This document shows, in pieces, positions 34,258 through 58,385 of a stretch of DNA of 64,000 nt. The position numbers were made by a program, and so were the translations under genes. Under the pieces are notes generated by a model that was not told the DNA's origin, made no database searches, and saw only the letters and a program-made list of their open reading frames with translations. Within the stretch, counting starts at the first letter, position 1; every line of letters starts with the position of its first letter. Source of the stretch: Candidatus Heimdallarchaeota archaeon (lineage in GTDB: Archaea; Asgardarchaeota; Wukongarchaeia; Wukongarchaeales; JBHIFL01); assembly GCA_046761065.1 (NCBI GenBank), contig JBHIFL010000001.1:111026-175025 (forward strand), written 5' to 3'.

Positions 34258-35087
34258 TGGCTATCCCTTTCCATCGTTTTCGTTATGAGAAAAGAGATTT
34301 ACAGAAACATTTGATATCCCCAAACCCTATGCTTTGTTACCCCAATAAGAACTTAAGGTATCCGCCCTACCAATTTATTAGAGAATACTTAATCACTTTA
34401 GAAAGCACTTGAATATACCCAAATCTTTTGTTTGTGGCATTTCATATCTCCAATAAAAATATAAAATAAAGGACTATTCCCCTTGTGACATGAACCTCGA
34501 TTCTAATGTGTAACATGCAATAAGAGTAACCGTTGACTTCGCCACGTTTACCTTCCCCTTTCATCTTTTCGAGGGCATTTCTCACCAGCTTGCAAGCTGT
34601 TGGAATTTCAGGCACTGCAATGCTATAGAATATAAGTTGTCCAACTTGCCTTGACTACTTTTTTTGCTTTCATGGAGTCTGAGATGCTGCGACGTAGTAC
34701 TCCCACTGTTAAGATAACTTATGTGGTGTTTGAGAATTGTACAAATTTCCTTAATGACCATTATGATATAGGTGTTAGAAATGAAGGGATTTGAAAACAA
34801 CTGCAATTGCCCTTGCCTTCCAAGGTTAATAACCTCTTCGCACACTTAGATATGACTTCTATTGCCAAATGGACGTTTGACTTTCTCTTCTTTTCTAGAT
34901 TGTTTTAAGTCGATTGAGGATTTATTGAAAATCTGATTCAAGACCAGTGAAGCATATCTGGTTAGCAAAATAACTACCTATTTTAATAATTGGAGCTTAT
35001 AACTGTCACGTAATTGATACTTCTGCACTAGATAAATTGCCTCCAACCTCATAAATTATTATATTCCCTACAATATAAATTTTGTAT

Positions 35088-35141
35088 GAGCGATTCATCT
35101 TCCTGCATTTGCAGGGAGTCTTTTCGCCAATTTTTGATAAA
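35088..35141 (-). mobile_element. Isolated IS200/IS605 left-end hairpin
   Basis: The minus strand reads TTTAT-CAAAAATTGGCGAAAAGA-CTCCCTGC-AAAT-GCAGGAAG-ATGAATCGC. It has the same GGCGA..GAC..hairpin..ATGAATCG frame as the left ends at 50666 and 58047. Confidence 0.6.
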
Positions 35142-35223
35142 AAAACATTAAGACCTACACCTATGTAGAATTCTTCAGGAAGTTAGGAATAATCAAAAAC
35201 TGCTAGAACTCCATGTAGCTTAT

Positions 35224-37921: not shown

Positions 37922-38100
37922 TGGCGGGCCTGGTGGGATTTCCAAAGGAAAGACAATCTTTCGCTATTATTTGAACCCACGACAGCCAGCTTTCTCCTTT
38001 TATGGCAAAGAGCCAAAAATGGCCCCAAATAGGAGGCTGACGCTCTATCTAGCTCTTAGTTCTTAAATGAACGAAGAAATCCATGCTGAGCTACAGGCCC
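37922..38100 (-). tRNA. tRNA-Arg(CCT) with three introns
   Basis: Removing ~38049-38080 (D-loop, 32 nt), 37992-38029 (37/38, 38 nt) and ~37940-37970 (T-loop, 31 nt) gives GGGCCTGTAGCTCAGCATGGATAGAGCGTCAGCCTCCTAAGCTGGCTGTCGTGGGTTCAAATCCCACCAGGCCCGCCA. Confidence 0.9.
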
Positions 38101-42635: not shown

Positions 42636-42744
42636 TACTTATCATGGAGTAAGAAGCTGTGCTTGGTGGAAAGTGCTGCATCTTGTATATTAATTGCCTA
42701 AAGAAAAAAAGAACAGCCTAGATAGTCTTTAATCTTAAGGTTAG

Positions 42745-42905
42745 CGGGCCCAGCGGGATTTCCAAAGGAAAGGCCTGCTTTCTCTTCTTTGAACCCGTGA
42801 CCCCCAGCTTTTTACCACCAATAACAGCATTTAGGTGTCCGCAAGCTGGTGCTCTAGACGACCCATCTTTTGAAGGGGGTTCTATCCAAACTGAGCTATG
42901 GGCCC
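42745..42905 (-). tRNA. tRNA-Arg(GCG) with three introns
   Basis: Removing ~42857-42884 (D-arm, 28 nt), 42810-42838 (37/38, 29 nt) and ~42762-42790 (T-loop, 29 nt) gives GGGCCCATAGCTCAGTTTGGATAGAGCACCAGCTTGCGGAGCTGGGGGTCACGGGTTCAAATCCCGCTGGGCCCG. CCA is not encoded. Confidence 0.9.
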
Positions 42906-48473: not shown

Positions 48474-48730
48474 ATGATCTAGTCCGTCATTAGTAATGGA
48501 GCTTCCTCCATCGCTCTCTGAGATCCTTTCTGTGCGACGTTCCCTGTGGGGGATCGGGACGGGTTTATGGCTGTCCTCTGTCGTAGGATATACCCAAGAG
48601 ACCTGTTCAGAATATTCTGCGCGCCATTCAAGTCGGCTTTATAGACGAACCCACTGGCACATGTGAACTGCCTCTTGGTTCGTTGGTCGTTAGTGCCACA
48701 TCGATGGCATATTTGTGAGGGTGGAAGCTT
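48474..48730 (-). pseudogene. tnpB: TnpB C-terminal remnant (Zn finger and RuvC-III) with decayed right end
   Basis: SQICHRCG...FTCASGFVYKADLNGAQNILNR, followed by right-end-like GAAGCTCCATTACTAATGACGGACTAGATCAT. Confidence 0.8.
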
Positions 48731-48825
48731 CATAGGCTTCATAAGATCTAAAGAATGCCACTTACACGTCTTAAGCAATTGTAAAATACCTTATTTTCTG
48801 ACAGCATTAAGGAATATTTCAGGAA

Positions 48826-50361
48826 CTAAACAAGTGTTATCTCAAACTTGCAGCGGTCATGCCCCGTCCCGTGACATTCAAGCTCGCGGGCAACCACATC
48901 TCGCTCCGTCAATAAATCCACCCTTCCCCCAATATACCCTGCTTGAAAATCGCAGAAAAGTTCGCCTTGCCCGAAGTTTGGCAGACCGGACGCGTGTGCG
49001 CATCCTGTAATGCTAAGATACGCTTTTTTCTTATACGCCCTAACTACTCGAGCTGAAGCATGCTGCCGCGAAAGGATCAAGTTAGGGTGGGCCAGATATG
49101 AACTGACCACGTTGACAGCGTCTTTTAAGGTCAACGGCCACTCTTTTTTCATATCAGTCATTGTTTTCCAAATAAGCTCTTTCCCGGGACCAAAGACACC
49201 TAATTCAAATCCTGCTGAATATAATAAGGTTCCACAAAATGGATCAATCCATTTCAGGGCAGTAAAGGGCTGTTGGAGCACCCCAATATGACAGTAGTCG
49301 CCAATCTTTTTCCGTATCCGTTTTTTCATAAAAATCGAGTCTTCCATCTGCTTTGCAATTCGGAGTTGGATCGCTTCTTGAAACGTTAGTCGTCGCTCCC
49401 TCGGGTCTTCTTCGCGCTGCTCGTGGGCAGATGGTTGGAGATCCTCCGGTTGCTCTGCTGTCTCCACTAGAAAATCACAATGCCGTGCACCTACACCCCA
49501 ACATTCCTGCTCTTCTACACGTACAAATCGTCCCAACAAGACTTCAATCATGCCTGCGATTTGTCCAGCTAACTGATAATCAACAGGTTCGCCTATACCC
49601 GGAATGCCCGCAGAAAACGCCGACCCATAAATTCTCACAAGAGCACTCATTGAATTTAGTTCCATTAATTCTGCGCTTTCAGTTATATAAGTTGGAAATC
49701 GTTCAGGTTGAGAATAAAGAGCGACGATTCCTTTCATAATCTCCTCAAACCGCTTCGGCGCGCGATACTCTGAACTGATTCGAGGATTTGCACTAATGCA
49801 AAGAGAAGGACCTGCCCCATACATGCCCAGTTCTTTACCCACTCGATAAAGCAGGTGTCGGATGAGTGGATCTAGGGCTAGTAACGAAAGGGTACTCTGT
49901 TGCAATATCCCGAGATGACAGTAGTCTCCGATATCTTCTCGGATTAGTTCCTGCCTAGTGATGGAATTAAGCGTATTCATTGTAATCTGGAGCATACTTT
50001 CCTTCTTCCGCTCATGGACTCCCTCACGGAGCGTACCTCGGGCGATGAGTGTTTCCCAGAGTTGGGTTTTTATGTCATCTTCCTCAATGGACCCATACAA
50101 CATTCTCTTGTCGTCGATTAAAACGGTCGGGAGGGTTTTAATATCGTATTTTTCACCCACTTGTGGCTGTTCTTCTAAATCCACGGTTAATACATGAATA
50201 GAATCGCCCATCGCAGATCCCACTACTCTATGAACGATACGGTCAACCTCGGGACACCTGTAACATTTTTTACTTGTGAACAATACTATCCGTACAGGAT
50301 CTACAGTTCGGGCGGTCAATTTCGTGGATTCCTCGGAGATTAAATAATTCAAATTACACAC
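48826..50361 (-). CDS. Thioredoxin-V4R-V4R fusion protein
   Basis: Trx CYRC and cis-Pro TLPT. Two internal repeats of IR..IGDYCH.G.LQQ...DP...LLY..G.ELG end in the V4R motifs ECWGVGARHCDF and ECHGTGHDRCKF. Confidence 0.85.
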   Translation of the reverse strand: MCNLNYLISEESTKLTARTVDPVRIVLFTSKKCYRCPEVDRIVHRVVGSAMGDSIHVLTVDLEEQPQVGEKYDIKTLPTVLIDDKRMLYGSIEEDDIKTQLWETLIARGTLREGVHERKKESMLQITMNTLNSITRQELIREDIGDYCHLGILQQSTLSLLALDPLIRHLLYRVGKELGMYGAGPSLCISANPRISSEYRAPKRFEEIMKGIVALYSQPERFPTYITESAELMELNSMSALVRIYGSAFSAGIPGIGEPVDYQLAGQIAGMIEVLLGRFVRVEEQECWGVGARHCDFLVETAEQPEDLQPSAHEQREEDPRERRLTFQEAIQLRIAKQMEDSIFMKKRIRKKIGDYCHIGVLQQPFTALKWIDPFCGTLLYSAGFELGVFGPGKELIWKTMTDMKKEWPLTLKDAVNVVSSYLAHPNLILSRQHASARVVRAYKKKAYLSITGCAHASGLPNFGQGELFCDFQAGYIGGRVDLLTERDVVARELECHGTGHDRCKFEITLV

Positions 50362-50665
50362 CTTTCTCTACAATTAAGTTATAATAGAATTTTGATTTGG
50401 ATGAAAATGCCCCACGGGAGGGTATTCGCCAAAGATCACCCAAAAATTCTTGACTCTTCAAGCGTTCGAACCCACAACACACTGTTGAAATTAAGGAATT
50501 TAACCTCCCTTCTTTATGGGCAGAAACATCATTAAAGACGCCATTTGGAGGAAGAAAAGCGAACTACTTTTATATGACACCTCGCAGAAGACACCGCTAT
50601 ATGATTTAAAAGATAGATAAATAGAACAGGATTGATTTATCGAAAAAGATCTTTATAAGACACAT

Positions 50666-50930
50666 TTGCTGAAAATGGCAAGGAGACGCCGGCATACTCG
50701 GGGAGATGAATCGTCCACGCAGGATTTAAATCGTTGTGAGCAAAACAATTTGCGAAGATGGGGCAATGGAACTAGAGCTAAAAAGGGTTATAAATCCGCC
50801 AAGGGACTTCGGAACCCGTGTGGGCAGGACGTAGGGGACGCATGGATCGCCCAGTGCAAATCCGACTGCCAACGGTAGTCGGATGGTAATCTTCGCCCGA
50901 AGTCCCGGCCGGCAGGGTGGAGTAGTTCAC
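50666..50930 (+). mobile_element. Non-autonomous IS200/IS605 element (PATE-like) with omegaRNA-like core, copy A
   Basis: Left end GAAAATGGCAAGGAGAC...GATGAATCG; right end GAAGTCCCGGCCGGCAGGGTGGAGTAGTTCAC. About 85% identical (manual count) to the reverse complement of 57780-58047. Confidence 0.8.
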
Positions 50931-51235
50931 GTACAGTTTCAATTGAACGCCAAAGCCATAGATAATGAACTTCTCGACGAAGAATGGATGATCATTCTGG
51001 GATTGGATACTAGGAACAACAAGATGAACATAACGATCTTGAATGCTTCCCTTTTACTATAATTGTGGAAATAATTGAAAAGCATCGGAAAAGGAAACAC
51101 TGACATGATTAAATGGGAGGGTAGAATAATTTCCTCCCACGAAGCGATGTCTCATAGCTAGACCTGAATTTTCTACCTAGATGGGTCCAAGCGACCCCCA
51201 GCAATTTTACTGAAAATCATTCTTATAATCTACCT

Positions 51236-51763
51236 ATGAAAGAAATAGAAATGGTGACTGTCGCATTGTCTTTAGCTTATATGCTTTCACACGGGTTATT
51301 GTACATATTAATTGGGACGGGTTATCTTTTTCTCATCATGCTTACGTTGAGTCCCCGCGTTTGGGGGTACCAGGATTATTCGGATGCCATCAAAGCGAAA
51401 GTTCCGCCTCAAACACAAAAAGAAAGGGTGTTCGCAAGGATTGTCGGAGTGCCATGGGTGGTGTTCATGTTCGGATTTCCACTCGTTTCAACGTACTTGT
51501 TGAAAGCCCAGCTTGGGGGAGAAATAACCTTTGAAATGGCGTTTCTCAATGTCTTCATCCTCAGTTGCTTCTTAGTGATCGGTGACTTGGTGATCCTCGA
51601 CTGGCTCCTCATCAGTCAAATTACCCCATGCTTCGTCATAATCCCAGGAACGGAGGTGGAAGATTACAAGGATTTTTCCCACCACTACAAAGCCCACGCG
51701 AAGGCCACGATCCCGTTGCTTTTCCTGTGTGTCGTATACGCGGCAATCGTGGTATATATTTAA
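51236..51763 (+). CDS. Membrane protein, unknown function
   Basis: 175 aa, about 4 TM segments; conserved-looking DLVILDWL...P.F.IIPGT...Y....HH. Confidence 0.7.
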   Translation: MKEIEMVTVALSLAYMLSHGLLYILIGTGYLFLIMLTLSPRVWGYQDYSDAIKAKVPPQTQKERVFARIVGVPWVVFMFGFPLVSTYLLKAQLGGEITFEMAFLNVFILSCFLVIGDLVILDWLLISQITPCFVIIPGTEVEDYKDFSHHYKAHAKATIPLLFLCVVYAAIVVYI

Positions 51764-52031
51764 TGGAAGGTCTCTCAGACCTGTGAGCCATCCATCTTCG
51801 CTCAGTAAACGCTTCGCACGTCCTCCTTTGTTGAAACATCATTCGATGAGCATTAGAGACCGTTAATTGGTTTTATTTTTCAAACTGATAAATGAGCGAA
51901 TAGAACTAATAGACTGAGTGCTGGACTACGTGTTCCAATTGCTGGGCTCGACCAGTGAATGATAGGAATCCATCATAGCAAAAGGGGCTAGCCGGGCGGA
52001 TATTGACCCCGTATATAGCCTCCAGGTCAAT

Positions 52032-52907
52032 TCACATTTGTTGGCGAACAACCATGAGTTTGCGTATGGTCCAAAAGAAGAGAGTGGTAGCAGCCGCAAA
52101 AATGAGAATCCACAGGATAAAGTGCGTATCCAGCCCGGTCTCCGCAATCGTCCGCCTTTCAAAGCTTCCCAGAACGTCTGACCACCAATATGAGAAACTG
52201 AAGATATCTATGATTGTGTGGCCAATCATGCCCGGGATGAGCGAGCCAGACGCATAGACCAGAATCCCCAACAATGCACTTATGGCAAAGATATGAAAGA
52301 GAATGGGTGGAGCCCATGCCTGATGAAGATGGGCAACGAGGAAAAATAGCGAAACAATCGTGATCCCTACTCCCGGACCATAACGCTTCTCCAAGGGAAC
52401 CTGCCCGTATCCGCGAAACCCAGTCTCCTCACAGATACCGGCCACCAACGAAGCCATGACAATGGTTAACCAGGCCACCCATAGCGGCATCGCATCAAAA
52501 TTGTACGTGGCGGTAAATGCATCCGCGGGAAACTCACGGAGTCGGAAGGTCAGCACCAAGCCTGATTGCACAACAACTACAAAGAGTAGCACTGCCACCA
52601 AGCCCCATTTCCAAACGGCCGGTGATAATGTTGTCGCACGAAAACTCTCGCTCCTAGCCTTTGTCGTGGCCTTGGGCCACCGCCCCCAGCTTCCACTGAA
52701 GTACTTCCAATATACCCATAGAACGCCACCCATAACGACGATCGACCAGAGCCCTGGGAGGAGGGCCGCAATTACGACCCAACCATAAACACCGATCGTA
52801 TTGACGATAAACCCCAATACTATGGCCTGGATCACGATAGGTAGGCTTTGCCAAAATCGAATAAATGCAGTATCTGAAGACTGCGTCTTCATATCTAAAT
52901 CAGTCAT
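52032..52907 (-). CDS. CPBP (CAAX/Abi) intramembrane metalloprotease
   Basis: EETGFRG, FLVAH and GMIGHTIID. ATG 52907 (after AGGAGA) is preferred over the ORF-track start at 52985. Confidence 0.88.
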   Translation of the reverse strand: MTDLDMKTQSSDTAFIRFWQSLPIVIQAIVLGFIVNTIGVYGWVVIAALLPGLWSIVVMGGVLWVYWKYFSGSWGRWPKATTKARSESFRATTLSPAVWKWGLVAVLLFVVVVQSGLVLTFRLREFPADAFTATYNFDAMPLWVAWLTIVMASLVAGICEETGFRGYGQVPLEKRYGPGVGITIVSLFFLVAHLHQAWAPPILFHIFAISALLGILVYASGSLIPGMIGHTIIDIFSFSYWWSDVLGSFERRTIAETGLDTHFILWILIFAAATTLFFWTIRKLMVVRQQM

Positions 52908-53192
52908 CGTCAGTTCTCCTTTTTGACTTTCTTTGGGTATTACCGAATGAAATCCAAAGTCCCGAATTAGAAGGAAAGTGGACATTTTCGAGTTCTTTCA
53001 CGAAGGAAGTTTGGTGGGTAATACGGTAGGTATTTAGATCTGGAGTCAACCGCGGAGGTGACCCGGCGATTCCTAATAACTGGTGGCACTCCTTTCTGGA
53101 GCGTTGAAAATAGCCCGTTGCATATCATGTGGGAAAGATCTTGTAAGGTGTGAGATCCAACCAAGGGGAATGTGAATCAGCACTGAGTTGTC

Positions 53193-54017
53193 TTATGGTT
53201 GCATCAATTCAGCAGGATAATCGGGGTAGATTTTGCCGGTACTGGCATATCGATAGAGGGCGGCCGTTAAAACCCCGTTAGCTGCCGAATAAATGACGAG
53301 TAAGAGCATCCAATAAACTAACGCGACAATGATTCCCACGGCCAATCCGGTCATAGGATACAAGACGTAGCCACCTATTGGAAACACGAGTCCAAGAAAC
53401 CCAAAGAGGAGGAATAGCAGGCCCATTCCAAAGCGACCAACGAACGCTTCCCCCCAGGTCTTGGAAATGACATCCTTGCTACGTCCAATCGATTTGAGAA
53501 CCGATACATTTTCAAAGAGGATGATGGGGACGACAAAGAAAGTAACAATGCCCCAAGCCCATTCAAAGAGCTGGCTTAAAAGGCGCATTCGCTTTCGGAA
53601 GGCGCGAAAAACTAAGCCAACAGTGCCACTGATCAGCGCCCAGACGAAGAGGTGCGGCAATTTTTTACTGGCAATCCTAAAGCCATCTCCAAGTGTCGGA
53701 TCGCCGCCCTCAAGCCGCACACGAGCACACCCAATCACGGCAGCATTAAAATACACAATCACAAAGGTCATCGCGACGTAGGCGAGAAAGTAGACAAGAA
53801 GGAGGAAGAGCTGACTGACTTCTTCGGATCGAAGGAGGAACAACTGACTGGTTTCTTCGAAGACGTAGAATAAAAGGCCAGGAATAAAGATCAGCCCAAA
53901 AACTAAGACCGAAAAGATCCCAGAGAGAATCGGTAGCAATAAAATTTCTTTGTCTTTGTTAAGGACCTCTAGGCTGATTTTCGCTAATTGCCAGCCGCGC
54001 CCAATACGCCCCATCAC
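53193..54017 (-). CDS. DUF6159-like membrane protein
   Basis: GWQLAKISLEVL..DKE.L..P, FNAA, W.I.TFFVVP.I..E, KTWGE and AALYRYA. Confidence 0.7.
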   Translation of the reverse strand: MMGRIGRGWQLAKISLEVLNKDKEILLLPILSGIFSVLVFGLIFIPGLLFYVFEETSQLFLLRSEEVSQLFLLLVYFLAYVAMTFVIVYFNAAVIGCARVRLEGGDPTLGDGFRIASKKLPHLFVWALISGTVGLVFRAFRKRMRLLSQLFEWAWGIVTFFVVPIILFENVSVLKSIGRSKDVISKTWGEAFVGRFGMGLLFLLFGFLGLVFPIGGYVLYPMTGLAVGIIVALVYWMLLLVIYSAANGVLTAALYRYASTGKIYPDYPAELMQP

Positions 54018-54125
54018 ATATCCGCCCGATTAAAAAATGGAGAGGGTGGTTTATAAATTTTCTCCTTAAATTTGCGTGCCCCGAAATCCTCCACCCCTCT
54101 ACATAAATGAAATATGTGTGTCCAC

Positions 54126-54541
54126 TCATGCACTTTCTTTGCCTGGGTGTAAGATTGTGCCAACGATCAGATTCGACAAGAGGTAGGTCAGCAAGACATA
54201 GGGCCACATATACCCCGCGAAGATGTTCCACCCGATCAGAATTTCCTCGACCGGCCGCCTGATAGCGAGACTACCTCCCCATTCAAAAAGCAAGGTCAAG
54301 CCCAACCACAAAAGCCCAACATGCATCAAGTCGTGAGTGTCATACGCCTTGACAAAGCGGAGTAAAAAATAGGCGAACCCGAAAATATACACAATTCTGG
54401 TGGACATTCCGATTTGATGAGCTGTTAGACCCCCCATCTCGGTTCATAGAGGAGGTTCATAAGGACAAAGAAATTCAATCCCGAAACTAAGATTTCCATC
54501 AACCAAACGCGAACCGCCGTCTTCAATAAAGGAACGTTCAT
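54126..54541 (-). pseudogene. Membrane protein interrupted by a frameshift in a G6 run
   Basis: ATG 54541 (after AGGTGA) encodes MNVPLLKTAVRVWLME...LYEPRWG. The reading continues in another frame as LTAHQIG...GLLWLGLTLLFE. Confidence 0.6.
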
Positions 54542-54625
54542 AATTGCCTCAACTCACCTGAAGCCAGTTATCTTTTTGGATGGAACTTCAGTCACATGCC
54601 TTTTTGTAATGAAGGCGTAGGTAAG

Positions 54626-54955
54626 CTAATCCCCTTGACTTTGGAGAGCATAGGGCTCGAACATCAGAATGTACGTATCTTCCACACTTTTCGGACAATG
54701 TTCAACCCCTTTAGGGATCACGGTCAGTTCCCCTTCCCGTAACGTCAAATCGGGATCATCTTTTAACTGAATTATCAACTCTCCTCTTAGCACATAAAAC
54801 AGTTCATCTTCATTGGTATGGTGGTGCCAATGGTATTCCCCTCGGCACAAGGCCAATCGAACCACTTGATCATTCACGCGCGTTACTTCAATAGGGTCCC
54901 AAGGTCTATCTGCTATTTCAGTTATTTTCTGCTCTAGAATAATCTTATGAATCAT
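54626..54955 (-). CDS. Cupin domain protein
   Basis: GEYHWHHHTNEDELFYVLRG and IPKGVEHCP; ATG 54955 is preferred over the ORF-track start at 55108. Confidence 0.9.
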   Translation of the reverse strand: MIHKIILEQKITEIADRPWDPIEVTRVNDQVVRLALCRGEYHWHHHTNEDELFYVLRGELIIQLKDDPDLTLREGELTVIPKGVEHCPKSVEDTYILMFEPYALQSQGD

Positions 54956-55027
54956 AAGCAGTAAATTTTGAGGGGCATTTATATCGGTTGCTGTGAACAG
55001 GCTGTCACTGAAATGAGTTGAAACACA

Positions 55028-55228
55028 ATGTCGACTCCACACAGTCAGATAGTCATGATGGAAAAATGGGATAAACAAGCTCTTCTTATGGCAACTAAAC
55101 AGATTCAAAAAGATACACGACGGCTTAAAAAGGAACAGGTCTCCACTCGAACCATTGTGAAGCTTACGGAGAATGTAAGACTTCTAGCATCAGTTTTAGA
55201 AGTCATCGTAAGTCAGACAATTTATTGA
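55028..55228 (+). CDS. Small hypothetical protein
   Basis: 66 aa amphipathic ORF divergent from the cupin gene; no motif. Confidence 0.35.
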   Translation: MSTPHSQIVMMEKWDKQALLMATKQIQKDTRRLKKEQVSTRTIVKLTENVRLLASVLEVIVSQTIY

Positions 55229-55499
55229 TGAGGTGGGTTCGTAAAATACGAGAGATCTATTTCTGTGGCTCACTGAAGGATCTGTTTTCAAAATAGTTAC
55301 TTTATTCTCGATTAAAATAGATCCTCCCTATTTTCGATTTTTCGGTATGCTAGCATTGACATCTTCTTCCATTAAGATAATTTTCTGCCACAAAGTTTCA
55401 ATTCAATAGGAATGCGATATAATCCATTGGTACTAAAATAGTTGAATTTAACACCAAGATCTACTTAAATGAAATACTGCACCCGAACAAAATCAGACA

Positions 55500-55880
55500 G
55501 TGGCTACCTTGCAGTTCCAAAAGAAATCACGAAAGAAGCGTCCTAGAGGGAAGATAATTCGAACGATCGCGCGCGAGCGAATGATGTGGCTTTTCAATTT
55601 ACTTGATGGCGTTGTCGCAGACCAACCAGACCTTAAGCAAAGGTACGCGGATCTCGCGCGTAAGCTAACGATGAAATCTAGAACCCGTCTCCCACGGGCA
55701 TGGCGTTACAGGATTTGTCGTCGATGTAAAAGGGTACTCCAACCCGGAATAAACTGCCGAGTCAGGACACGGGGAAAAAGGGAGAAACATGTGAGTTTAA
55801 CCTGTTTGGAATGTGGCTGGATTACTCGGTATGTTATTTCAGCGAAAAATCGAACTCAACGTTTCAGGGATTCCCCTTAA
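55500..55880 (+). CDS. rnp4: RNase P protein component 4 (Rpp21)
   Basis: IARERM..LF, RY...A, ICRRC...L.PG...RVR and TCLECG...RY. Confidence 0.92.
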   Translation: MATLQFQKKSRKKRPRGKIIRTIARERMMWLFNLLDGVVADQPDLKQRYADLARKLTMKSRTRLPRAWRYRICRRCKRVLQPGINCRVRTRGKREKHVSLTCLECGWITRYVISAKNRTQRFRDSP

Positions 55881-56246
55881 GTTAGGTTTCAAAGGCCTAC
55901 GAGATATCAGAATATATTTGAACAGAATTCTAATAAGAAATAATCTCATTGATAAATTTCGCAAATGTAAATCGATTAGTTTGTCAGAGTAAACCCACTG
56001 GATATGAACCTTGGGAAACCATGTTATTTCCTGAAAGAAAGTGTTTTTATCTTTTTTAGCGATATTTTTTTAGGAAACAAGCAAAGAAGATGGAAAAGTT
56101 CTAAAATCATCCGATATGGAGAGAAGAACGGGCTAAAAACAATACTACTCTTTATTCAATGATATGTGAGCAATTTTAGTAAGGTTTTTATCTCGTAGAA
56201 CTTTAAACGCGTATGAGACTAAATGGAATGAAGCGCGGGAAGAAAA

Positions 56247-56705
56247 ATGCCAACAGCATTTGATGTGCCACCCGAAAACCTGATAAATGCGATTGCAGAA
56301 GAGCTCAAAAAAATGGATCAGATCAAACCACCACCATGGGCCCCATTTGTGAAGACGGGAGTACATAAAGAACGTCCCCCTACACAGGATGATTGGTGGT
56401 ATCTCCGAACAGCTGCGATTTTGCGAAAACTGTACGTTGAAGGGGGTCCCATAGGAGTTTATCGGGTCGCAAAAAAATTTGGGGGGACTAAGAAATTTCG
56501 ATCACGGAAGGTAAAGGTATTTGCAAAAGGAAGTCGAAATATTATTCGTACAATCTTCCACCAATTAGAAAGAACCGGTCTCGTTACAATTAGAGAAGGA
56601 CGAGGCAGAGTTCTTTCAGATACTGGTATTTCATTTATTGATAAAATTGCAACAAAATTGAAAAAGAGTCTTGAAAAAGAGATTCCTGACCTTATGAAAT
56701 ACTAG
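56247..56705 (+). CDS. rps19e: 30S ribosomal protein S19e
   Basis: PPPWAPFVKTGVHKERPP..DDWWYLR.A.ILRKLY, GSRNIIR and GR.L. Confidence 0.97.
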   Translation: MPTAFDVPPENLINAIAEELKKMDQIKPPPWAPFVKTGVHKERPPTQDDWWYLRTAAILRKLYVEGGPIGVYRVAKKFGGTKKFRSRKVKVFAKGSRNIIRTIFHQLERTGLVTIREGRGRVLSDTGISFIDKIATKLKKSLEKEIPDLMKY

Positions 56706-56744
56706 AAGAGAAACAAGCTAATAAATAACACAAAATTTCGAAAA

Positions 56745-57098
56745 ATGATAAACGGAGGAAAAAGGTTGTCTGACGACTCAGAGTTAGAAAAAATACGAGC
56801 TAAGAAACTCCAAGAGTTACAGCAACAAGCACTAGAGGAACAAAGACGGGAACAGCTTAAAGCAGAAATAGAAGCCCAAAAAAATACGATTTTGAGCCAA
56901 ATCCTGACCACGGAAGCAAGACAAAGACTCGCTAACGTCAAAATGATCCGACCAGAACTTGCAGAGTCGATTGAGCTTCAATTAATTCAACTGGCCCAAT
57001 CCGGTCGACTAAATTCCAAAGTCACAGATCAACAACTTAAAAGAACACTGAAACAGATCTCCCAGCGAAAGCGAGAAGGGAAGATCTCCTTCAGATAA
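56745..57098 (+). CDS. PDCD5/TFAR19-family DNA-binding protein
   Basis: DSELEKIRAKKLQEL and ILTTEARQRLANVKMIRPELAESIELQLIQLAQSG; usual position after rps19e. Confidence 0.93.
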   Translation: MINGGKRLSDDSELEKIRAKKLQELQQQALEEQRREQLKAEIEAQKNTILSQILTTEARQRLANVKMIRPELAESIELQLIQLAQSGRLNSKVTDQQLKRTLKQISQRKREGKISFR

Positions 57099-57245
57099 GT
57101 TCTTGATCGACTAAAAAAAGGGTTCTTATCTTTCCATTTGGTGGAGTTGGAAAGGGAGCGGAGTGAAAAGTTACGAGTAAAATTTTATTAACTCTATGCT
57201 TGAGCAGAAAGAGAGATCTGCAGATCATCTTTTTTTTAATCTAGG

Positions 57246-57674
57246 CTATGTTTTAGTAATAACCCAGATTACAAAGTAGATGGTGACAAAGGCAACAAGT
57301 TCGAAGACCCCTGTTCGATAGGTAAAAGGAATCACATCAAGGAGTTTGAAGATTCGAAGGAATTCTGGGGCCACTCCGAGATAAATGCCATAAAATAGAA
57401 TTGCTGTGACGAGAGTGGACAGGGCGAACTGACGGATTGTCAACATGTCAACCAGTTCTTTTTCGGTGAGAGTCTTGGCAAAATTTATGATAATTGCTCC
57501 CAAGAAGAAGGCGGCCGCTAAGGGGATTCCAAAAATCCATACAAATTGAGTTGTATTGGCTCCGTAGAAGAAATAAAGCTGATATATGACGGGAAGTTGA
57601 AGAAATACTCCAATAGCCAATCCGAGAATAATATACCCACGGTTAATTGCAACGTAATATGAAATACGTGACAT
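57246..57674 (-). CDS. 4-TM membrane protein, unknown function
   Basis: 142 aa hydrophobic ORF preceded by GAGG. Confidence 0.65.
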   Translation of the reverse strand: MSRISYYVAINRGYIILGLAIGVFLQLPVIYQLYFFYGANTTQFVWIFGIPLAAAFFLGAIIINFAKTLTEKELVDMLTIRQFALSTLVTAILFYGIYLGVAPEFLRIFKLLDVIPFTYRTGVFELVAFVTIYFVIWVITKT

Positions 57675-57779
57675 CGTGAACCCTCAATACCTCAGGCGGT
57701 TTACTCAAGTTGAATCTATACTCCCTCGTATCAGCCTTTCGATGTTTCCCTTTTCCTTGAATATATTGATCATACCCAG

Positions 57780-58047
57780 TTGACTACCCCACCCTGTTGG
57801 CCGGGACTTCGGGCGAAGATTACCGTCCGACAACCGTTAGCAGTTGGATTCGCCCCCGGGAGACCCACGCATCCCCCTACATCCTGCCCGCACGGGTTCA
57901 GAAGTCCCTTGGCGGATTTATACCCCTATTCAGCTCTAGTTCCGTTGCTCCATCTTCATAAATTATTTTGCTCATAATGATGTAAATCCTGTGTAGGCGA
58001 TTCACCTCCCCGAGTGCGCCGGTGTCTCCTCGCCATTTTCAGAGAAA
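57780..58047 (-). mobile_element. Non-autonomous IS200/IS605 element (PATE-like) with omegaRNA-like core, copy B
   Basis: The minus strand reads GAAAATGGCGAGGAGAC...GGTGAATCG ... GAAGTCCCGGCCAACAGGGTGGGGTAGTCAA; inverted copy of 50666-50930. Confidence 0.8.
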
Positions 58048-58385
58048 GTCTGTCTACACATAAGGCCTGTTTGTACCACATTAAACCTTTTACGGGGGTA
58101 CTGGAGTGAGTTGGAGCCTCTAAAACAAAATATCTATGAGTTTCTGGGATCATTGCATTTGAGGGGTGGTGATAGGGGAGCATGGGGTTAGGATCATCCA
58201 AGGCGTTCTATATAGGGAGGATCTGAGTCCATATGGGGTCCTAAACCGTTATTGGGGCACAGAAGCAATCTAGAGTCGCCTTTGCCGAACGATTGCGATT
58301 TTCTGTGTCTACCGTGTCTGATGGGAAGAATGGTGGAACATGATGTTAGGAGATAAAAGGGAAAACTGCACCCCTTGTAGGGTGG

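Follow-up and report, generated by a model that had tools for sequence, protein, structure and literature searches.

Probably decaying mini-elements of a tnpB-only insertion sequence family, found as an inverted pair in an Asgard archaeon

This study focused on two short repeats in the genome of a Candidatus Heimdallarchaeota archaeon (Asgardarchaeota) and on the question that they raise, namely whether a mobile element that has lost its genes still serves as a gene for a guide RNA. The repeats, here called A and B, lie in opposite orientation within a 64,000-nt stretch of DNA, the window, which corresponds to C1:111026-175025 in an assembly of 4.4 Mb (234 contigs, 91% complete). A preliminary description of the locus took them for stand-alone cassettes of omegaRNA, the guide RNA of TnpB nucleases. 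The answer reached here is that, with a probability of about three in four, A and B are protein-less deletion derivatives of an IS1341-like, tnpB-only element of the IS200/IS605 type, comparable to palindrome-associated transposable elements (PATEs) or miniature inverted-repeat transposable elements (MITEs), and that they are old, eroded and probably decaying.

Origin of the inverted pair

Mini-element A occupies 50669-50930 on the plus strand (262 bp) and consists of a left end, a deletion junction, an omegaRNA scaffold and a right end; mini-element B occupies 57779-58042 on the minus strand (264 bp). A repeat search of the window returned them as two sets of inverted arms, 50662-50837 with 57874-58049 (176 nt, 86%) and 50856-50926 with 57783-57853 (71 nt, 89%), and a gapped alignment of A with B gave 85.5% identity over 262 nt. 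The boundaries were refined by alignment with 16 other copies. The inverted pair of about 265 bp and 85% identity that had been reported from this locus is therefore real, and its coordinates were off by 3-5 nt at most.

The likely source lies close by. An intact full-length element of 1365 bp, carrying tnpB only, is found at C1:108794-110158, 868 bp upstream of the window start, and its left and right ends are homologous to those of A and B, which bears out the earlier proposal of a protein-less IS200/IS605 derivative. Apart from its tnpB, the assembly has no intact cognate copy of that gene. The encoded TnpB (C1:108891-110150) has 419 aa with OrfB_IS605 and Cas12f1-like TNB domains, resembles solved TnpB and Cas12f structures, and has RuvC residues D198, E289 and D371 that are conserved in nine homologues of 55-70% identity, so that a related tnpB with its D/E/D triad is present in the same genome. 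Among relatives with a name, those nearest to the protein belong to Heimdall-, Odin- and Hod-type Asgard archaea, and the family as a whole is spread over Asgard, Thermococcus, Geoglobus and Caldicellulosiruptor genomes.

In the mini-elements, a deletion that runs from codon 5 of tnpB to the RuvC-III codons has joined the left end (a hairpin, a TTTAAAT box and the tnpB start) directly to the last ~150 bp, a region which in the full-length element overlaps the tnpB 3' end and the right end and codes for the omegaRNA scaffold. The same junction is present end to end in four copies at unrelated loci, namely A, B, C115:7028-7291 and C195:1348-1610, and the architecture of A is common to the latter two; a 5'-truncated fifth copy on contig C87 carries the junction in part. 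An identical junction at unrelated loci indicates that the deletion occurred once and that the mini-element was itself mobilised later. From this common junction we infer that it spread as a mini-element.

Both termini are sharply defined. Similarity on the right side stops exactly after GTAGTTCAC (GTAGTCAAC in B), with unrelated sequence beyond it in the 18 copies compared, and on the left side it stops before CT(G/C)AAA(A/T)TGGCG in the multi-copy alignment. Two motifs noted previously, TGGCGAGAAGAC ... GATGAATCG at the left end and GGGGTAGTTCAC at the right end (with GTAGTCAAC in B), are genuine and conserved family-wide. Hidden Markov models (HMMs) of the two ends recognised the pair with E values of 4e-31 and 4e-32 on the left, the match of A lying at C1:161688-161803, and of 3e-40 and 2e-37 on the right. 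No target-site duplication was found at A or B.

Protein-coding capacity is limited to short, non-conserved open reading frames (ORFs). A has a 70-aa sense ORF starting with TTG, and B has an antisense 65-aa ORF and one that runs past the element edge, and nothing else; the ORF lists of the two copies have none in common, in agreement with the earlier statement that they share no credible ORF. All that remains of tnpB is the start plus four codons and a frame-broken C-terminal stretch. An Rfam scan at gathering and E-value thresholds assigned A and B to no family, the sole match being a chance one to MALAT1.

The family scaffold and its erosion in A and B

The last ~140 nt of the element are conserved among 18 copies drawn from this genome and from metagenomic and Asgard contigs that were found via TnpB homologues. 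A covariance model (R1) was made from 18 copies, 10 of them adjoining tnpB. When the copies are folded singly, most converge on a structure with four stems, in which GCUUCU..AUCC-loop-GGAU.GGAAGU forms stem 1, GGGCG-loop-CGCCC forms stem 2, GCGAA encloses an inner hairpin in stem 3, and stem 4 adjoins the 3' end. On a structure-blind MAFFT alignment, 89.1% of the cells in the 41 pairs of this fold are paired, compared with 31-51% when the partners are slid, and 21 of the pairs show changes on both sides; the observed values were reached by 0 of 500 shuffles. Covariation across copies, which the preliminary description had called for, is thus present for the family. G-U pairs make up ~14% (about one in seven) of the cells, a share which points to a structure specific to the tnpB-sense strand, as expected of an RNA.

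Against this model the scaffold homologue of A (50791-50930, plus strand, terminating in the transposon-end motif TTCAC) scores 112.6 bits (E 7e-29) and that of B (57779-57920, minus strand, with the end motif mutated to TCAAC) 103.6 bits (E 2e-26), both over the full model length. The view that the 3' part is of omegaRNA type is upheld by these scores, and by its homology to the tnpB 3' end and right end. The scaffold of A has a G+C content of 61%, against 42% for the genome. Elsewhere the picture for the nested pairings described from A and B was mixed, in that they do exist (32 of 32 in A, 30 of 32 in B) but are not the fold of the family, where 65% of the cells pair, against 89% in the four-stem fold, and covariation is weak; they correspond to the minimum free energy (MFE) fold of A.

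The model gave 16 matches in this genome, for one intact cognate tnpB, and matches in 15 other genomes among 150 sampled from the phylum, mostly at the 3' end of a full tnpB, with no more than a C-terminal tnpB remnant in a few cases. Two of the matches in other genomes of the phylum (G049:C64 and G010:C289) have only a C-terminal tnpB remnant of ~40-58 aa upstream. On these sequences, similar gene-less copies probably exist in other Asgard genomes. An exact-pattern scan of GTDB species genomes with the right-end core returned one unrelated match, in high-GC coding sequence of a Blastomonas metagenome-assembled genome, and a DNA search of 40 relatives gave nothing useful; the lineage is isolated, with no close relative, and two members of the same order, among the genomes covered.

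Set beside the better copies, A and B are damaged. Their scores of 112.6 and 103.6 bits compare with 138-153 bits for C115, C195, C5a and the full-length copy, and consensus pairs are broken at 8 of 41 positions in A and 7 of 41 in B, against none in C115, C5a and L044. The canonical fold has an energy of -15 kcal/mol in A and -23 kcal/mol in B, compared with MFE values of -58 and -53; when each domain is folded separately, B comes close to normal values and A is weak. The scaffolds of A and B share 68-69% identity with that of the full-length copy, those of C115 and C195 85-86%, and no other family member is more than 79% identical to the scaffold of either A or B. Relative to shuffled sequences, the MFE z-score is -2.4 for A and -0.06 for B, the latter no better than shuffles.

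A and B differ from each other at 11 positions in paired columns, none of them compensatory, with seven pairs lost in one copy or the other and four more broken in both; between C115 and L044 all eight differences in paired columns keep pairing. Between A and B, conservation is equal in the scaffold and the left end (85.5% each), and between C115 and C195 it is higher in the scaffold (94%) than in the left end (85%). Uncompensated loss of pairs, together with equal divergence of scaffold and left end, is read as relaxed constraint, and on this comparative evidence A and B are most likely decaying relics and not working guide genes. The proposal that they are functional cassettes is not supported, given that their consensus pairs were lost without compensation and that the scaffolds are only ~68% identical to that of the intact TnpB.

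The copy at C115:7028-7291 (minus strand), which lies outside the window, is the best-preserved mini-element, with 41 of 41 pairs, a TTTAT motif before its left end and 86% scaffold identity to the intact element. Judged by these features it is the best candidate in this genome for a live standalone omegaRNA, ahead of A and B.

Ends, flanks and alternative readings

The left end of A (50669-50716, plus strand), recognised by the left-end HMM, includes a TnpA-type sub-terminal hairpin region. As read from the alignment and folds, each end of the family consensus forms a hairpin of 8 bp (CTCC....GGAG). The left-end one, CTCCCTGC-GAAA-GCGGGGAG in the family, is cut to ~4 bp in A and B, as read from the alignment by eye, and stem 4 at the right end of these copies carries 2-3 mismatches. 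Downstream of the hairpin, A has a TTTAAAT box at 50725-50731 (plus strand). Of the 18 left ends aligned, most have this box at the equivalent position with no more than two substitutions, and in the full-length copy it precedes the ATG of tnpB by ~39 nt. It is probably an archaeal TATA box that belonged to the tnpB promoter and was kept in the mini-element; TBP genes are encoded by the host assembly. In B the left-end box reads TTTACAT (57980-57986, minus strand), one mismatch from TTTAAAT. The tnpB start remnant of A (50766-50778, plus strand) comprises the ATG plus four codons up to the deletion junction and aligns with ATGTATCTGGTGC of the full-length copy, after which the sequence resumes at the RuvC-III codons (DVNGAINIL). 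At the junction of A, at 50788-50795 (plus strand), stands TTATAAAT, seen only in the A/B lineage, the corresponding sequence being CTATCAAAT in C115 and C195 and GCGATCAACAT in the full-length copy. This box, a possible second TATA box, corresponds to the TATAAATCC that had been reported as kept in both copies, and which is present in A and B.

In 11 of 12 left-end flanks of the family, TTAT, mostly TTTAT, stands immediately 5' of CT(G/C)AAA and is taken as the transposon-adjacent motif (TAM). This TTAT before the element, the TTCAC at its end and the want of a target duplication make up the TAM and transposon-end-motif arrangement typical of IS200/IS605 elements (PMC10055086, PMC3119063). 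The TAM position reads ATTTG in A (50664-50668, plus strand) and TTTCT in B (58043-58047, minus strand), where the family has TTTAT, and that of the full-length copy also deviates (TTTTT). To the left of their starts, A and B both show AGACA.A.TTT (50651-50668 and 58043-58064), with a TTAT 13-17 nt upstream of those starts. A boundary shifted 12-17 nt to the left was considered for the two copies and rejected, as the similarity was not significant against shuffles (1150 of 2000). The shared flank hints that an ancestor of A and B may have moved via the upstream TTAT and carried the flank along, with the same reservation that its similarity does not exceed that of shuffles.

On the other side, the sequence after TTCAC is unrelated among all 16 copies, so that each copy abuts its own flank, as had been suggested for the two elements of the pair. 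The putative guide of A is GTACAGTTTCAATTGAACGC (50931-50950, plus strand) and that of B is TGGGTATGATCAATATATTC (57759-57778, minus strand). The guide predicted previously for A was correct, and that for B was one base off, since the element ends with GTAGTCAAC and the flank starts with TGGGTATG. A search of the whole genome with 16 nt of the guides and up to two mismatches found no second target next to TTAT, with matches at chance level only. Without a second target, a copy could conceivably be directed at nothing but the empty site that it left itself. The guides therefore do not look like a host-directed repertoire, and the idea of a dispersed guide repertoire finds no backing in this search.

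If the family behaves as published elements do, an active mini-element would be excised by a Y1 TnpA supplied in trans and inserted 3' of TTAT. The left-end promoter would then transcribe the scaffold, with the RNA running on into the flank, and this RNA would be loaded onto TnpB made from the full-length copy. The complex could cut the empty site, TTAT plus flank, that is left by excision, and recombination would restore the element. Such a logic of selfish homing has been demonstrated for IS605 elements (PMC10055086).

Several observations weigh against the view that A and B are mobilised derivatives now in decay. No TnpA with matching ends was found among three Y1 matches in the 91% complete assembly: the only intact Y1 tnpA, on C19, sits in an element with unrelated ends, and the other two matches are truncated where their contigs stop. 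As sources of the cognate TnpA, both the C19 tnpA-tnpB element and the element on C92 were tried and set aside, as the ends of the former and the right end of the latter are unlike those of the family. Neither an empty-site allele nor joints were seen over 50000-58600 in contigs of four metagenome runs from one hydrothermal-vent study, contigs of a kind that cannot reveal rare variants, and both elements are present on contigs of all four. A search of sequencing runs for this DNA returned these four, which are probably its source, and no RNA run. B still folds into four local domains with a summed energy of -46.9 kcal/mol, compared with -51 to -60 for intact copies, and A and B each exceed 100 bits on the covariance model. 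The nested fold also suits them (32 and 30 of 32 pairs) better than their relatives (21-24 of 32), which could reflect remodelling instead of decay.

There are, then, other explanations to be weighed. It is unlikely that A and B are working guide genes after all, read through the right end, arming TnpB or a nuclease-dead relative in trans, and forming a dispersed repertoire with the other copies. [quoted passage not shown] What speaks for decay in its place is that 7-8 of the 41 pairs are broken and none has been compensated since A and B split, that the scaffolds are ~68% identical to that of the sole intact TnpB, that the canonical fold reaches only -15 and -23 kcal/mol against MFE values of -58 and -53, that ATTTG and TTTCT occupy the TAM positions where TTAT would be expected, and that no guide has a second TAM-flanked target in the genome.

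A function of another kind would follow if the A/B lineage had become a new nested-hairpin RNA with TTATAAAT as its junction TATA box, serving either as an altered omegaRNA for a TnpB that is so far missing from the assembly or, independently of TnpB, as a small RNA or a mobile promoter acting on adjacent genes. We consider this improbable, and the narrower version, in which the scaffold shifted to a nested long-hairpin fold behind the new TATA box and acts independently of TnpB as a small RNA or a promoter for downstream genes, slightly more so. Relatives form 21-24 of the 32 pairs of the nested fold, whereas A forms all 32 and B forms 30. The fold was derived from A, however, which makes its complete agreement with that copy circular, and B adds a single closely related sequence, for which keeping 30 of 32 pairs has a p of about 0.04 by a rough binomial estimate. 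Only 4 of 64 nested-fold columns differ between A and B, at an overall divergence of 14.5%, and the helix GGGACUUC / GAAGUCCC shows two both-side changes relative to the family consensus (pairs 22-130 and 23-129); across the family, however, the fold is 65% paired and its covariation is weak. The MFE z-score of A (-2.4) counts in favour of this reading, and that of B (-0.06) is no better than shuffles. The box TTATAAAT is specific to A and B, and each right end is directed at the start of the gene that follows, at 51236 (plus strand) for A and 57674 (minus strand) for B, an arrangement which for two copies has a 1-in-4 chance of arising at random. It is chiefly the derivation of the fold from A, and the single close relative with its shuffle-like MFE, that keep the probability of remodelling low. 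Least credible of all, and close to negligible, is a composite transposon or inversion cassette in which the inverted copies, bracketing 50931-57778, mobilise or flip the intervening 6.85-kb segment. IS200/IS605 elements transpose in a strand-specific way, for which one strand must carry both a left and a right end (PMC10055086, PMC3119063), and inverted copies give no outer pair of that kind; the genes between them are ordinary (Rce1-like, DUF6159 and unannotated ORFs) with a genome-like G+C content of 43.5%, and a single orientation is seen in the contigs of the four runs.

Both mini-elements are located in divergent intergenic regions, with 306 nt from the right end to the next gene on the side of A (51236, plus strand) and 105 nt on that of B (57674, minus strand). 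These downstream genes are without a Pfam family. There is no oligo-T run closely after either right end, because of which read-through from the mini-elements into the downstream genes is conceivable.

Other traces of the family were noted on the same contig and elsewhere. A degraded full-length copy lies at C1:93982-95355 and a divergent mini-element of ~290 bp at C1:3898-4185. A micro-mini-element of ~138 bp (C5:52850-52987, minus strand) has ~75 nt of left end joined directly to the last ~70 nt, its right-end part consisting of stem 4 and part of stem 3 only. Solo ends also occur, and one of them, the third copy within the window, is a left-end remnant at 35025-35142 (minus strand; left-end HMM, E 7e-18) with a TTTAT TAM, a hairpin and a TTTATAT box. 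Its tnpB start is mutated (ATT TAT CTA GTG), neither a right end nor a tnpB remnant follows it, and no covariance-model match is nearby. At 48479-48778 (minus strand), 1.9 kb from A and directly downstream of a 511-aa thioredoxin and V4R gene (48826-50361), lies the C-terminal part of another tnpB, in the form of an ORF of 99 aa that has a Cas12f1-like TNB domain (E 9e-9). Unrelated to the mini-elements is a 42-nt direct repeat of 81% identity (GCGGGCC..GGGATTTCCAAAGGAAAG..) at 37924-37965 and 42744-42785 (plus strand), 4.8 kb apart.

Relation to known systems

The case provides a clean example, from an Asgard archaeon, of a TnpB insertion sequence reduced to a probable promoter and a guide-RNA scaffold between two ends, and it yields a covariation-supported four-stem omegaRNA model for a widely spread TnpB family. 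With the pristine C115 beside the eroded A and B in one genome, it also illustrates that not every such mini-element is a live guide gene, and it counsels caution where 'orphan omegaRNAs' are tallied in surveys as a functional repertoire of guides. The A/B case in itself opens no new question. The concept of an omegaRNA-bearing PATE is already published (PMC10055086, PMC10691335), so that the preliminary description was right in kind without being new, and for A and B the concept is, by the state of their scaffolds, probably no longer true in function.

A close parallel is with the PATE-like minimal elements with omegaRNA that were identified in the IS605 family of Geobacillus stearothermophilus (Meers et al. 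2023, PMC10055086). Like these, A and B have no protein genes, left and right ends like those of the full element, an omegaRNA region, and a need for TnpA and TnpB in trans. They differ in the Asgard host, in the tnpB-only source and in the defined junction that keeps the probable tnpB promoter and the tnpB start; the copies here are also far more diverged (72-89%), A and B are structurally eroded, a cognate TnpA was not found, and A and B are known from sequence alone. Standalone omegaRNAs that function in trans with compatible effectors were described in the 2021 OMEGA study, as related in PMC10691335. To the extent that this account covers them, they too are effector-less scaffolds with the effector locus elsewhere in the genome and a different guide in each copy. 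The trans activity was shown in those other systems, whereas the scaffolds of A and B are ~68% identical to that of the sole intact TnpB.

A further close parallel, among archaea, is with the PATEs of the HqIRS families in Haloquadratum walsbyi and Natronomonas, which are IS1341-type elements that have lost their core; in HqIRS71, some of the sequence coding for the C-terminus of TnpB is still present (PMC3119063). At the time of that work omegaRNA had yet to be discovered, and a role was not assigned to an RNA. The host phylum is a different one, and in the present family the elements have TTAT and TTCAC as terminal motifs. Both are archaeal, stem from core deletion in IS1341-type elements and are heterogeneous in sequence. 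The HqIRS families have no inverted terminal repeats and no target duplication and insert beside a short target oligonucleotide, and the present family appears to agree with them in this, with ATTTG and TTTCT as deviating motifs at A and B.

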